A DNA stretch of 64,000 nt from Octopus sinensis (Eukaryota): assembly GCF_006345805.1 (NCBI RefSeq), contig NC_043008.1, forward strand, positions 34,968,001 to 35,032,000, written 5' to 3'. Numbering within the stretch: position 1 is the first letter of the stretch; each line of letters begins with the position of its first letter. The position numbers and the translations under genes are program-made. The notes under the pieces were generated by a model. The model did no database searches. It saw only the letters and a program-made list of their open reading frames with translations, and had not been told where the DNA came from. This document shows positions 6,556 to 64,000 of the stretch, piece after piece.

Positions 6556-6748
6556 CGTTATAATTATTGCATATGTATACAGTATATATATATATTCACA
6601 AGGACCTCGAACCCACAAGAGTAAACGAGAGAGACAGAGACAGGCAGAAACAAGGAAAATGCCACTTGTATTTGAACACTATACAAATATTCTTTTATTT
6701 AAAAAAACTTTTCTTTTAATTTTTCTAAATTTAATTATTTAATTGTTA

Positions 6749-6783
6749 CAGTTGAAAAAGTCTGAAGGACTGAAACGGTACTG
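6749..6783 (+). ncRNA. Degenerate minimal hammerhead-like motif
   Basis: cag-TTGAAAA-agtc-tgaag-gact-GAAAC-g-GTA-ctg: stems I and II are kept, core has 2 substitutions; ~50 nt before (TA)n. Confidence 0.4.
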
Positions 6784-6952
6784 AAATGTTTTTTATAAAA
6801 TTATTTTAGCATTTTCTATCTTGACTTTTTTCCATATATATATATATATATATATATATTATATATATATATATATATGTATGTGTGTGTGTGTGTGTGT
6901 GTGTGTGTGTGTTGTGTGTGTGTATGTGTGTGTGTGTGTGTGTGTGTGTATA

Positions 6953-7128
6953 CAAGGTCTGATCAATTAGTATGCGGACTGTTGACATAGTAACGAATCT
7001 AAAGCATACAGAGTGAAACCGCTAGGCACAAATTGACCTTGACCTCTGCTGTGCATGTGCACTAAGTTTTAGCGTTCTAACTCACTTCCTTTGTTTACAG
7101 CAGTGCTTTGCATATTGATCAGACCACG
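6953..7128. mobile_element. Mariner-type MITE / internally deleted element
   Basis: TIRs caaggtctgatcaat / attgatcagaccacg, flanked by TA on both sides (6951-6952, 7129-7130). Confidence 0.75.
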
Positions 7129-7367
7129 TATATGTGTGTGTGTGTGTATGTGTGTGCATGTGTGTATATACACATACATGTATATATGTATATGTATATA
7201 TTTACTTCTAATATAAGGATAAAATTTTATCAAAATTTTTTTATCAGTGGCTAGCATATTAGAAATACCTTTTAAGGTGAAAATTCTAAATACAATTATA
7301 AATAATGGCGAAAAGAAAATGATGCAAAAGTGCAGCCTACAACTTGGAGTTGAAACACGCTTTTATT

Positions 7368-7768
7368 TTTTACTTGCTTGAGTCATTGGACTACGGCCAT
7401 GCTAGAGCACCGCTTTGAAGTATTTTAGTCGAACAAATTAAATTCCAGTACTTACTATATTTTTTATAAGTCTGGTATTTATTCTATTCAACACTATTGC
7501 CTGACCGCAAAGACACGGGGACATAAACAAACCAACACTGGTTGTCAATCACTGGGGGAGAGGAGCAGAAACAGTCACAAACACATACACACATACGCAT
7601 ATAAATATACAGCGGGCTCCCACTCAGTTTCCGTCCACCGTATTCACTCGCAAAGTACTGGTTGGCTTAGAGCTATAGCAGAAGACACTTGCCCAAGGAC
7701 TAGCGGCCACACAATGGCACTGAACCCGAAACCACATGGTTACAAAGCGAGTTTCTTAACTACAGCCT
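7368..7768 (-). mobile_element. SINE family A, near full length, diverged
   Basis: Collinear with the copies at 9975-10368 and 46465-46850. Confidence 0.85.
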
Positions 7769-7949
7769 ATCACTCAGAAAGACGGCTGGTTGCTTCCATA
7801 GATGCAGGGCAATTTCAACGCAGAAATTTTAGCTTTAACGAGATACATTGAATCACCGAGGCGCCATTTTTATAGTCAACAAAACAATCCATGCCATCTT
7901 TGCGTTTATGTTCGGTTGGCTGGAAACTTCCATGGTGCAACAACAACAA

Positions 7950-8103
7950 ATACTACTACTACAAATTATATTCCTACTCCTGCAGCTACAACTCCTAATA
8001 CTGCTGCTACCGCTGCTACTACTACTACAACTGCTGCTGCTACTACTACTACTACTACTACTACTACTACTACACTACTACTACTACTACTACTACTACT
8101 ACT
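7950..8103. repeat. (CTA)n/(CTG)n microsatellite
   Basis: Directly visible. Confidence 0.95.
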
Positions 8104-8599
8104 TAATTTGGTGGGACAGGAAATACGATAAACATTCTTCCTTTCCCTTTTCAACGGAATTTTGAATCTGAGTCGTGAAGCATCGATGTTTGATAGATTA
8201 AATTATGATAGTTTTGCTTCGTCTAATTAGGTGTGTATTTTATTGGAAAAAAAAAAAGAAAGTATATCGGAAATAATTCTTCATACCTCTCCTGGCAGCC
8301 TAGATACATATACAAAGTGAAATAGCATCATCATTAGCAGTAGCAGCAAAAGCAGCAGCGGGAAATCAAAGAAATTTTCACTGACTCGGCTTTGCAAGTA
8401 GCTTAACCTTTGTCCGACAGCTTTCGCTAAGCATCTTCATATTTCTAATCATTAACGTCCGTTTTATACTGGAAGAAATAGGATTATAACTAGACTTCTG
8501 ACAACTGGCGGTGTCTACTAAACTAGATTCTGGTCAGCAGTCTAGCTTAGTGAAACTGGAAAATGAATGACTTCACTACAAATCATTGTGACTATTTGT

Positions 8600-60142: not shown

Positions 60143-61049
60143 AATATGCTTATATAAAGAACTCATATAAGATCTTGCAAACCAAAGCCAAAAACGAAAT
60201 ATATATATATATATTATATATATATATATATATATATATATATATATATATATATATATATATATATATATATATATATATATGTATTATAATATGCTTA
60301 TGAAGAGGTTATTATGATGTTTTGTGCGTTTATAAAGTTTAACAGTTTAACTATTTTAGGAATGTTGTTGAATACAGAACTGCATACTTAGGAATAATAT
60401 TACCAGTTTATTCCCTGTCAGCCCTAATTGGCGAATAATTGATTAGGGTGAGAGTGGAGGGGGGAAATGACTGGAAAGCTTGCTGTGTATGTTTTCCCAA
60501 AATTCTTGTTTAGAGTGTAAGATAAATAAAAGAGACGCGCGAGAGAGAAAGAGAAAGAGAGAAAGAATGAAGAAGAGAGAGACAAAGAGGGAAAGAGAGA
60601 GAAGAGAAAGAGAAGTAACAGAAAGGGTTAAAGGGAGAGATAAGAACTTCCACAGTTGCTAAGTACGAAATATTACTACAAAGTCACGTAGAAAATTCCT
60701 TGTTCGCGCAGCATTCATTGATTTCTTTTTAGACTGGCATCAAAATGAGAAGAGAATCCATATTCGTTGCCAACACTACCAATATTCGTCTAGTGATAAA
60801 ATTCCAAAACTGCAGGCACGGCAAATATTTAGATTCAGTATCATGTGCCGACAAGGATTTAATTAATTTCGTTCACCTCTCTTGGAGATTTCTTTTGTAT
60901 TTTATTTCTGATACAAAATTATAATGAAAACACCCTGGATTGGTTCTGATTTCCAAGAGTGTAAAGATAGTATACTTTGTCTGTTTGTCTGATTTCCAGT
61001 CTGATTGACTGTATCTCTCTCTCTATCCGTCCATCTATGTCTGTCTGTC

Positions 61050-61490
61050 TGCCTGCCTGCCTGCCTACCTACCTACCTACCTACCTACCTACCTACCTAC
61101 CTACCTACCTACCTACCTACCTACCTACCTATCTACCTACCTACCTACTTGTCTATCTATCTATCTATCTATCTATCTATCTATCTATCTATCTATCTAT
61201 CTATCTATCTCTATCTATCTATCTATCTATCTATCTACCTACCTACCTACGAACCTACCTACCTACCTACCTACCTACCTACCTACTTGTCTATCTATCT
61301 ATCTATCTATCTATCTATCTATCTATCTATCTATCTATCTATCTATCTACCTACCTACGAACCTACCTACCTACCTACCTACCTACCTACCTACCTACCT
61401 ACCTGTCTATCTATCTATCTATCTATCTATCTATCTATCTATCTATCTATCTATCTATCTATCTATCTATCTATCTCTATCTATCTATAA
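61050..61490. repeat. (CCTA)n/(TCTA)n compound microsatellite with higher-order duplication
   Basis: Directly visible; the interruptions acttgtc and cgaac each recur twice. Confidence 0.92.
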
Positions 61491-61779
61491 ACGATTTTCT
61501 GAGGAACCATTTTAATAACCAGTGAGAGATGATATATTCTTGGAACAGCCAACATTTAGTTCATCTATACCAGAGTAGCACTGTAAGAAAGAATGGAACC
61601 AATCGATATGTTATTGGTTTTCTGACCAAAGACAGTAGACTATTTGTATTCCACAGTACAGCATCGCTTTTATAGTAAAGATAGCAGACTGTCGAAAAAC
61701 CAGTTCTCCTTACTTGTAAATTGTTATCATGGCATAGCAAAGCGCACCTGTCTGATGTTATTAATATTAGACTAATCGG

Positions 61780-61995
61780 AAGGCGAACTGGTAGAATCGA
61801 TAACATCCCGGAGAAAATGCTTAGTGGAATTTCGACCATTCTTATGTTCAGAGTTCAAGCTCCGTCGAGGTCGGCTTTGCCTATTATCTTCCGAGGCCGA
61901 TAAAATGAGTACTACTTGAACTCAAGGGATCGGTGTAACCGAGAAGCTATCTCCTCGAAAACTTTCAGGCCTTGTGCCTATAGTAGGAAGAATTA
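61780..61995 (+). mobile_element. SINE family B, diverged
   Basis: Matches consensus. Confidence 0.75.
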
Positions 61996-62169
61996 TTGTC
62001 AGCTTCATCAGTAGAAAATCTAGCACAATCATTAAAGCGTTGATAAAGTGCCTTGCTGTATTTATTCCGACTCTTTACGTTCTGTGTTCTAATCTTACCA
62101 ATTGTTCGAATGGCATCCCAGCTATGTTCATTCATTTCTTCTAGCTTTAGGACACTTTGTATCCAGAAT

Positions 62170-62384
62170 TATTTTCTACTCTAGGCACAAGGCCCCAAAT
62201 TTTTGGGGTGGGGCCCAGTCGATTAGATCGACCCCAGTACGCAACAGGTACTTAATTTATCGATCCCGAAAGGATGAAAGGCAAAGTCGACCTCGGCGGG
62301 ATTTGAACCCAGAACGTAAAGACTGACGAAATACTGCTAAGCATTTCACCCGGCGTGCTAACGTTTCTGCCAGCTCGCCGCCTT
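62170..62384 (-). mobile_element. SINE family B, full length
   Basis: Matches consensus. Confidence 0.9.
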
Positions 62385-62514
62385 TCTTCGGTTGTTTAAC
62401 CCAAGGTAAATCCTAACTAAGCAGATCTATGGTAAAATCCATTCCAGCCATGACCACCTCGTCCACTGCTTGCCCAGGACTATCGTACCTAATTTGTCCC
62501 CAACATTTTCATTT

Positions 62515-62700
62515 ATCTTTTATTTGTTTCAGTGATCGGGCTGCGGCCATGCTGGAGCACTACTTTGAAGGATCATAGTCGAACAAATCGATCCCAGTAC
62601 TAACTTTGCTTTAATCCTGGTACTTATTCTATCGGCATCTTTTGACGAACTGCTAGATTATGGGGACGCAAACAAAGCAACACCAGTTGTCAACTTGCTA
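62515..62700 (-). mobile_element. SINE family A, 3' half
   Basis: Matches consensus. Confidence 0.8.
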
Positions 62701-64000
62701 ATTTATACACACACACACATTCATATGTATATATACAATGTATATATATGTATGTAAACACACACACACATATATATTATATATATATACACACACACAC
62801 ATATAAGTATACATATATATATATATATATACATATATATATACACACACACACATATAAGTATATATATATATATATATATACATATATATATATATAT
62901 ATAAACATGTGCATATATATATATATGAATATATATACATGTATATATGTATGTATATATGTGAAGATATATATAGTGTTTAATCCTACCTATATTTAGA
63001 TTGAATATTGTTGTAAATAGGGTAAATGTGTTTGAAAGTTGTGGGCTTTTTTGGTATGTTTGTTCCCAAACAACACTTCTTTTAGTACTGTTGACACCGC
63101 CGGATTGAATGGTACTGCCCAGGTGTCGAAACAATAATGATATCCGTGGGACAGCTGATGATGGAGGTATGTTGGATTGTTGGTATGGCTGTTTTTGTAT
63201 ATGTGGAATAGTGTTATACATACGTACGCACGTACATACATACATACATACATACATACATACATACATACATACATACATAAATACATACATACATACA
63301 TACATACATATATACATATACACACACATACGCAAATATATTGACTAAAAGATCAATTTTCGCAAGTGAAATATGCATATCGCTCTGTACGACTGCAACG
63401 ATGAAAGTAAGTTTTTTTGTCCCTAACAGGATATATTCAAGAATCATGGACCCGATATTTATAGAAAATATTATTTGAGAATCACATCCGTAAAAATTAT
63501 CCTGCAGGTCCCTAGGTTATAAAACTTGACAATGCTTTGCACAGCTTTTTGTATAAAATGTTATTTTCATTAATGTGTGCACCAGAAGCTATAAAGTCTA
63601 GACGTCGTTATGCTCACATTTGTTTTGTCATATTTAAGAAACAAGCAAGCAACATCAGTTTGAAGCGGAAAGATCAAACATATATTATGAATGAGGAGCT
63701 TAGACAGGGAAATGGTAATTTCTGTACGCATGAGCATATTGTTCCCGGAACGGAAACACCCACGTTTGTACCTATGTACATACACAACTATACAGACACA
63801 CGCCTAGTCATACGCATACACAGAGGTAGGCGCATACTGGAAAACATATTGTGACTTGTCGTATGTATTGCGGATGTAAGAAAGATAACATCACTATTAT
63901 ACAGATAGTGCAAAAACACTGTTTTTATTATATTGAGTGTGTGTGTGTGTGTGTATGTGTACACGTACATATATTTACATACACATCTTTAAATACATAT

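Follow-up and report, generated by a model that had tools for sequence, protein, structure and literature searches.

Metazoan Penelope-like elements (PLEs) carry minimal type-I hammerhead ribozymes in their pseudo-long terminal repeats (Cervera and de la Pena 2014, PMC4209133), where a single minimal motif is reported not to cleave and dimers to cleave weakly. The text of a later survey (Craig et al. 2021, PMC8557442) describes PLEs with a (TA)n preference, inverted 5′-truncated copies, a 30-40-bp tail and a hammerhead 100-200 nt from the 3′ end, and lists the (TA)n preference for octopus Naiad and Hydra families. Naiads are described there as having no canonical hammerhead and as thriving without it, with Naiad_Ovul marked ‘HHR_half_core’. 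Hammerheads of permuted connectivity, types SGC and CSG, have been validated in vitro (Eckert et al. 2023, PMC10085705) from environmental sequences only (metatranscriptomes for SGC, two metagenome sequences for CSG), none of which the article text assigns to a known eukaryote or retroelement. Here, we analyzed a window of 64,000 nt from Octopus sinensis (GCF_006345805.1, contig NC_043008.1, positions 34,968,001 to 35,032,000), in which an earlier note had flagged seven hammerhead-like sites beside microsatellites. It is likely that these islands are truncated 3′ ends of several PLE families inserted in (TA)n, that six of the flagged sites belong to families with the known minimal hammerhead, and that the Naiad end among them carries a rearranged, pseudoknotted hammerhead predicted to cut within one molecule. 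On balance, we also favor the broader view that Naiads never lost the hammerhead but carry pseudoknotted, monomer-active permutations of it: type CSG in nematodes and a spider, and, in cephalopods and non-coding relatives, a seventh connectivity whose chain is broken between A9 and G10.1 and of which the octopus genome would hold tens of thousands of copies.

The octopus genome surveyed comprises 2.72 Gb. For each repeat family, 40 candidates were scored and 30 fetched, and duplicate loci (L019, L029, L081 and L103) were left out of counts. The Naiad end (family G) and the parts of its predicted ribozyme are the following.

62978..63221, forward strand: 5′-truncated 3′ end of an octopus Naiad PLE, family G; longer copies have C-terminal reverse transcriptase (RT) remnants upstream
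63063..63168, forward strand: predicted split, non-circularly permuted hammerhead in the 3′ untranslated region of the Naiad PLE, family G, from pairing counts and a text match to Naiad_Obim/Ovul
63063-63068: 5′ strand of helix X
63069-63092: hairpin Y
63093-63098: 5′ strand of helix II, with G10.1
63101-63105: helix a
63109-63113: helix III strand
63114: H17, with the cut predicted after it
63115-63120: helix I strand
63122-63127: 3′ strand of helix II
63128-63131: GAAA
63142-63146: helix a′
63149-63154: helix I strand
63155-63161: CUGAUGA
63162-63168: helix X′

Family G matches the 3′ ends of two octopus Naiads, Naiad_Obim and Naiad_Ovul, in the supplement of PMC8557442, and the half core marked there is completed here into a permuted hammerhead. 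The earlier note had taken 63088 for a weak type-I core, which did not hold: CUGAnGA lies upstream of GAAA in 0 of 29 copies, and position 6 is U in 27 of 29. Both the type-I and the type-II readings were rejected; an intact CUGAUGA (at 63155) sits 27 nt after GAAA. A twister reading, weighed by eye against consensus features, was also dropped. The site instead holds every hammerhead part in a rearranged, pseudoknotted order, and cutting is predicted. The five letters after GAA pair with an upstream strand whose last letters are GUA, the hexamer that follows this GUA pairs with the one just before CUGAUGA, and the six letters before GAAA pair with a strand farther upstream that begins G10.1-C11.1. 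The order is helix II strand, cleavage block, GAAA block and CUGAUGA, with helices X and Y between A9 and G10.1: X starts right after A9 and pairs just before Y, hairpin Y ends at G10.1, and helix a links helices I and II at their outer ends.

These features were counted in 30 copies, including the window copy, which has one mismatch in helix I and one in helix III. The CUGAUGA letters are kept in 29-30 of 30, H17 is A in all 30, and G12 is kept in 27. Counted per pair, pairing occurs in 21-30 copies for helix I, 27-30 for helices II and III, and 23-30 for helix a; it reaches 25-30 of 30 at seven of eight pairs of helix X (which was set by eye and then counted) and at eight of nine pairs of Y. 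When the boxes were fixed and the other letters permuted, a 6-bp helix I together with a 5-bp helix III arose 435 times in 200,000 trials.

The same arrangement recurs in repeats with different helix letters. A strict descriptor of the permuted motif gave 11 hits at 10 places in 1,885,955 bases of non-G loci, versus 0, 0 and 0 in shuffles, and two hits, versus none in 10 shuffles, in an 800-kb sample made up of 80 hand-picked stretches spread across chromosomes. The hits fall in three further repeat groups, P1-P3. In P1 (14 copies with 73% mean column identity, after leaving out six partial copies of 21 and the 5′-truncated L346), helices I, II and III are paired in 89-96% of cells, and changes on both sides of a pair occur at 12 of 16 pairs (5/6 in helix I, 3/5 in II and 4/5 in III), to which X and Y add 3 of 12. 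In total, 51 cells changed on both sides, compared with 20.3 ± 3.6 in shuffles (0/500). In P2 (nine copies, after leaving out five of 14, of which four were partial or carried deletions and one was an arm of an inverted pair), 16 of 44 pairs changed on both sides, versus 7.3 ± 1.9 in shuffles (0/500), including three of the five pairs of helix II; slid structures are only 27%-51% paired, and helix X extends to 15 bp. Covariation of helices I, II and III comes from the P1 and P2 alignments, since G alone shows almost no both-side changes, and it is support rather than proof. While pairing is shown by counts and covariation, the fold and helix stacking of the split motif are what we infer from them. 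For the hits in P2 and P3, just 0-1 pairs can form between the 3′ strand of helix II and the strand that follows CUGAnGA, and therefore the upstream helix II strand is needed.

The P1 and P2 motifs lie on the sense strand of the element, 80-270 nt before (TA)n in 23 of 24 copies. No PLE protein was found upstream of P1-P3 copies, where the tblastn hits were neighboring A and H elements. Three young P1 copies (L426-L428) have in common a non-coding unit ~870-900 nt long that bears the split hammerhead and has its 3′ end repeated ahead of it, a retrozyme-like layout with 1619 first-look candidates. This unit resembles non-LTR retrozymes (PMC7229834; bioRxiv 10.64898/2026.07.22.740005) in being a non-coding repeat of more than unit length that has PLE-like ends and a single hammerhead-type motif, but those described are 150-450-bp tandem arrays with canonical type-I hammerheads, whereas the P1 unit is ~870-900 nt long and bears the permuted motif. 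A splice-acceptor reading of the letters just before G10.1 in P1 was dropped: they are GG, not AG, in nine of 14 aligned copies, and the stretch pairs in hairpin Y. With copies in every state of decay counted, the 800-kb sample has 18 insertions of G, P1, P2 and P3 together; because P1-P3 were partly found in that sample, the extrapolation to tens of thousands per genome is rough.

To place these motifs among other Naiads, 14 Naiad 3′ ends in the supplement of PMC8557442 were read by eye, on the assumption that file order follows the metadata table. Six of them, five from nematodes and one from a spider (Parc, Nbra-2, Nbra-3, Hcon, Hpol and Smim), show complete type-CSG hammerheads with helix I of 4-6 bp, helix II of 4-5 bp and helix III of 6-12 bp, plus a helix that joins I and II. 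The cephalopod ends Obim, Ovul and Esco have the split order; in the squid Naiad_Esco, helices I, III, a and X are built from different letters, and helix II is imperfect.

Compared with types SGC and CSG as presented in PMC10085705, the octopus motif has the cyclic order C-S-G, all core letters, helices I-III, a short linker from the helix I strand to the helix II strand, and a helix a that resembles their ‘I’ helix. It differs in block C, which is interrupted between A9 and G10.1 by helices X and Y. A helix II strand within 2 nt of CUGAnGA, as an unbroken block C would have, is lacking in P2 and P3 hits, and a weaker alternative of this kind is possible in P1 and G. The split motif would thus work like SGC and CSG, but it is not filed under either because block C is broken. 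No report of permuted hammerheads in PLEs was found in the literature searched, which lay outside subscription journals and the supplements of PMC10085705 and the bioRxiv preprint.

The other flagged sites belong to known architecture. Together with related pieces, they are arranged in the window as follows.

6200..6310, reverse strand: 3′ fragment of group P2, by P2 comparison; only the CUGAnGA block and tail are left, with the matching piece at 6231-6299
6596..6834, forward strand: Neptune-type PLE 3′ end, family D; minimal type-I hammerhead at 6749-6783, U3-A8 core variant
10391..10451, reverse strand: inverted 5′-truncated copy of family A without tail, pairing with 10594-10654
10485..10700, forward strand: Nematis-like PLE 3′ end, family A; minimal hammerhead at 10522-10559 with intact core, then a ~35-nt tail and (TA)n
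10778..11200, reverse strand: Hydra-type PLE 3′ end, family C; hammerhead at 10963-10886 with 49 nt between core boxes
16745..17070, reverse strand: Hydra-type PLE 3′ part, family E; CUGAnGA at 17057 (G8A here) and GAAA near 16950, ~99 nt apart, with a 2-bp helix I
17075..17150, forward strand: inverted piece of the family E terminus, joined on its 5′ side
22691..23109, reverse strand: second, more decayed copy of family C
23515..23748, forward strand: Hydra-type PLE 3′ end, family F; truncation inside helix II leaves the GAAA half only
29866..30300, reverse strand: inverted copy of family B (Nematis-like); intact core at 30003, with helix I shifted by a triplet expansion
30345..30612, forward strand: family B copy in direct orientation, tail included; G5A in the core at 30437
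35203..35560, forward strand: GIY-YIG endonuclease remnant of family H, which stops before the family’s hammerhead
59310..59918, no single strand: fold-back pair of family J; type-I hammerhead with ~105 nt between core boxes, decayed in both window arms

Each named island is a copy of a dispersed repeat family. First-look candidates, which are not copy numbers, came to 922 for A (10516), 1781 for B (29957/30437), 1425 for C (10886), 2591 for D (6749), 1295 for E (16937), 396 for F (23520), 1713 for G (63088) and 1424 for H (35203). As the earlier note had supposed, the islands are of Penelope-like origin: when the families were extended in the 5′ direction, longer copies had coding remnants upstream, with both RT and endonuclease in A, D and H, endonuclease only in C, E and F, and RT only in G, although no full-length intact copy occurred among the fetched loci. 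Family B retains a single 394-aa frame with RVT_1 and GIY-YIG Pfam matches, and a family B protein is 79% identical to a UniRef entry from Octopus bimaculoides. The same note called the islands mutually unrelated, which is correct for their DNA but not for their proteins (e.g., A and B share 35% identity over 222 aa). Clade labels rest on motifs only, compared by eye with the text and Fig. S2 of PMC8557442. Families A and B have a short linker nearest to that of Nematis in that figure and are called Nematis-like because it has three of the four cysteines of CX2-5CxxC. Family D has DKG, the RT motifs and a CX2-5CxxC linker with a long spacer before GIY-YIG, as in Neptune, and the D 3′ end lies downstream in 18 of 19 loci selected by the D endonuclease. 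The Hydra clade is marked in PMC8557442 by a CxCX5C linker, no CCHH, and CxxC and CxH around conserved E and N; endonucleases of this type occur in F (full CxCX5C linker), C (CxC, CxxC and CxH) and E (CxxC and CxH). Family H has RT-thumb and endonuclease remnants, and a hammerhead ~190-600 nt further on in 15 of 29 copies; the GIY-YIG relic noted earlier at 35203 is indeed a PLE endonuclease remnant, but the window copy ends before that hammerhead. Hence, six of the seven flagged sites are 5′-truncated 3′ ends of Neptune-, Nematis- and Hydra-type PLEs with known minimal type-I hammerheads, and the named islands descend from coding PLEs rather than from retrozymes.

A minimal-hammerhead descriptor was passed by three window sites (6752+, 10526+ and 30003-), versus a mean of 0.02-0.1 in 50 local dinucleotide shuffles, none of which reached three, so that the control proposed in the earlier note came out in its favor; a stricter first version, without odd-length palindromes, passed only 10526. 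Each family builds its paired helices I, II and III from letters of its own, and its helix III is palindromic, again as proposed. All ten core letters are kept in 14/27 copies of A, 19/29 of B, 13/28 of C, 25/28 of D, 8/29 of E and 6/29 of F, and the commonest letter is canonical at all ten positions in A, B, C and E. The consensus cores are therefore intact in these four families, but only 6-25 of 27-29 copies per family keep every letter. The core at 6749, formerly described as decayed, is the fixed form of its family, with U3-A8 in all 28 copies outside the window. At 16937 a hammerhead exists, but its CUGAnGA box is at 17057, ~100 nt upstream of the GAAA box, whereas 23520 has the 3′ half only, as had been stated. 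The second family C copy, the family J fold-back and the P2 fragment at 6231-6299 were missing from the earlier account.

These type-I motifs have the block order C-G-S, with an NUH triplet, and resemble those in PMC4209133 in their palindromic helix III and short helix I (families A, B, C, D, E, F, H and J; in E, helix I has only 2 bp), in the extra letter after A9, in the U3-A8 variant and in occurring mostly as solo truncated copies with some opposite-strand pairs. The spacing between core boxes is larger in C (49 nt), F (58), E (99) and J (101-106) than the longest loop II, 35 nt, in File S2 of PMC8557442, and no prior report of long helix II in such hammerheads was found in the literature searched. 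Helices I, II and III of family J are paired in 12-14 of 14 copies. Short motif searches with A, B, C/E, D and F returned no match in the consensus files of PMC8557442. The architecture as such (PLE 3′ ends with a hammerhead, (TA)n and inverted copies) is already described in PMC4209133 and PMC8557442. Position 8 of family F is split between A8 (16/29) and G8 (11/29), and a subfamily (e.g., L155, L172 and L175) has C3 opposite A8 in seven of 13 anchored copies. That subfamily has an extra letter between helix I and C3, and helix I differs between the subfamilies. In family B, a triplet expansion after the GAAA box (29964-29976, reverse strand, and 30465-30478, forward strand) moves helix I in 3-nt steps among copies. 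The random sample (L306, L312, L313, L345, L354, L361, L362 and L382) contained at least six further type-I families, several with helix II spans of 51-59 nt.

The association with microsatellites was likewise borne out. The islands’ core motifs lie 53-194 nt before the microsatellite, measured from the predicted cleavage site or the GAAA box, so the described sequence of hammerhead, short tail and (TA)n exists. Outside the window, 140 3′-complete copies of A, B, C, D, F and G were compared: 87 adjoin (TA)n, versus 3.9% of random positions, and 115 adjoin any alternating repeat, versus a background of 8.1%. One short interspersed element (SINE) used as a control scored 0/19 and 0/58, while a second, SINE-like repeat (10218-10370 and many copies) had one end beside TA in 31 of 53 cases and the other in six of 28; TA adjacency is thus not unique to these elements. 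This SINE-like repeat might share the PLE target or machinery. The window is itself rich in (TA)6+ arrays (16.7 per 10 kb versus 11.5 in the 800-kb sample). In that sample, seven sites passed the type-I descriptor at helix II spans of ≤40 nt (shuffles, 0-1) and 14 at ≤110 nt (shuffles, 0-3). Of these 14 sites, nine have (TA)4 within 250 nt downstream, compared with a 23.6% baseline (P = 0.0014), as the earlier note expected, but (TA)4 is also present upstream in seven. Its estimate of one motif per 10 kb holds for this window if decayed relics are counted, whereas elsewhere the descriptor passed 7-14 motifs per 800 kb.

Inverted 5′-truncated copies, also noted earlier, form two pairs in the window (10391-10451/10594-10654 and 29870-30059/30382-30568) and occur in 54 of 199 loci (A 13/27, B 5/29, C 9/28, D 2/28, E 15/29, F 10/29 and G 0/29); the inverted arms of A and B end 30-45 nt short of the element end. 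Tandem arrays of 150-450 bp were not found, and among the ~29 loci of each family a second hammerhead copy on the same strand occurred no more than once. In Rfam, hammerhead was absent among the 150 window matches listed out of 436, and at the gathering score no hammerhead was reported in nine loci examined, nor was one for the permuted motif. No RNA data set was listed as containing 6596-6834. Three raw RNA runs, searched for families other than the split motif, gave 22-66 reads on both strands, mostly <95% alike and with read ends that did not pile up, which is no evidence either way.

Several results count against a cutting, split hammerhead in Naiads. Five of the 14 Naiad ends (Omin, Adux, Tama, Dst-2 and Dst-3) showed neither form by eye. 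The strict descriptor is passed by just 11 of the 30 G loci, and the near lack of both-side changes in G leaves covariation to P1 and P2, neither of which is linked to a Naiad open reading frame. The strict descriptor demands the upstream helix II, and its spacing limits were chosen after loose hits had been seen; the loose version without helix II, whose best hits had spacing in common, gave eight hits versus 3-7 in shuffles, which is no excess. The covariation shuffles ignore relatedness, so that related copies can beat them, and the structures were read from the same sequences. The break beside A9 may also be fatal, because no insertion longer than 1-2 nt is known beside CUGAnGA according to the text of PMC10085705, where block C is assumed unbreakable; that a single extra letter is common there in PLE hammerheads would suggest that the A9 step faces outward. 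A hammerhead-like fold that does not cut but serves the RT as an RNA signal, with type-I motifs likewise mostly passengers, would accommodate this unprecedented break, the decay of most copies and the thriving of Naiads without canonical hammerheads (PMC8557442), as well as the spread of an F subfamily in which C3 faces A8, which hints that an impaired core may not keep PLEs from spreading. We consider it rather unlikely, since at least four helix sets that are unrelated to one another all retain the catalytic letters, an NUH triplet and G10.1-C11.1, a degree of conservation not required of a signal that is only bound. Alternatively, 63063-63168 and its relatives might be ordinary type SGC, in which the strand after CUGAUGA makes helix II, and the upstream strand, together with X and Y, would form a competing fold that is inhibitory. 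The block order is indeed S-G-C; over four pairs, two of them G-U, 90.6% of P1 cells allow pairing with the downstream strand, and in G the first two downstream pairs are G-C in 30/30 and G-U in 27/30, so that P1 and G might fold this way. The hits of P2 and P3 cannot, given their 0-1 downstream pairs. Moreover, both-side changes lie in the upstream helix II (three of five pairs in both alignments), downstream pairing is not above shuffles (98/500), and the downstream strand is used by helix X, which makes plain SGC a quite unlikely reading.

For the named islands as a whole, the retrozyme label proposed earlier might seem to fit window copies that are all short and non-coding, and P1 has its non-coding unit led by its own 3′-end repeat. 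For A-H it is refuted by the longer copies that run into PLE coding remnants, and short tandem arrays are lacking, so that we regard non-autonomous retrozymes as very improbable. Chance matches in an AT-rich, microsatellite-rich genome would account for (TA)4 lying within 250 nt downstream of ~24% of random positions, for the SINE-like repeat that adjoins TA in 31 of 53 cases, and for the loose permuted descriptor, which did no better than shuffles. They would not account for three window sites versus 0.02-0.1, for 11 strict permuted hits versus 0, or for the conserved cores and covarying helices, and this explanation is refuted and scarcely credible.

The likely explanation, that PLE 3′ ends were inserted in (TA)n, implies that the GIY-YIG endonuclease nicks (TA)n and that the RT copies RNA from its 3′ end, as in established PLE biology. 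Copying would usually stop early and often add an inverted copy without the 30-45-nt tail, a structure seen here. The palindromic helix III of type-I motifs would need two copies to fold (PMC4209133), and solo genomic copies are likely inert for this reason. Hence, the earlier notion that the elements are seeding self-cleaving motifs was overstated: the majority of copies have decayed, and in PMC4209133 no cleavage was obtained with a single minimal hammerhead. In the Naiad motif, helix III appears to be a true helix of 5-6 bp formed by distant strands, and therefore the motif would need no partner. The chain would keep to the cyclic order C-S-G, with a gap between A9 and G10.1 that terminal helix X, stacked on hairpin Y, would hold. 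A cut after GUA at 63114 would set the RNA end for retrotransposition or circularization, as is thought for hammerheads in other PLEs. Comparative support for the Naiad site as a new variant of a known ribozyme is strong; cleavage and a role in retrotransposition are predicted from sequence.

The window also contains features that lie apart from these motifs.

6300-6555: spacerless 128-bp palindrome, 74% complementary
14600-15442, forward strand: Tc1/mariner transposase remnants (HTH_Tnp_Tc3_2, DDE_3), with inverted arms nearby at 15777-15897/18038-18158
21019-21062: near-perfect hairpin with CUGACGA in the loop and GAAA in one arm, within a 250-nt island before (TA)n
26917-27483 and 31557-33672, forward strand: remnants of RT and zf-RVT of the long interspersed element (LINE) type
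40187-41263, reverse strand: intact 359-aa frame with a match to rhodopsin-family G protein-coupled receptors (7tm_1, E 1.4e-13)

Neither the palindrome at 6300-6555 nor the hairpin at 21049 had homologues in 1.43 Mb of loci.

If correct, the favored view would overturn the published statement that Naiads are without hammerheads, and with it the inference that the ribozyme is dispensable for PLEs. Non-circular RNA permutations, so far seen solely in environmental sequences whose hosts are unknown, would gain a place in animal genomes, in many copies, and the rule that CUGAnGA must join helix II directly would be broken. The split fold may be widely overlooked, since standard descriptors and Rfam miss it. 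As a predicted single-molecule ribozyme with a defined cut site, the Naiad motif makes the function of PLE ribozymes directly testable.

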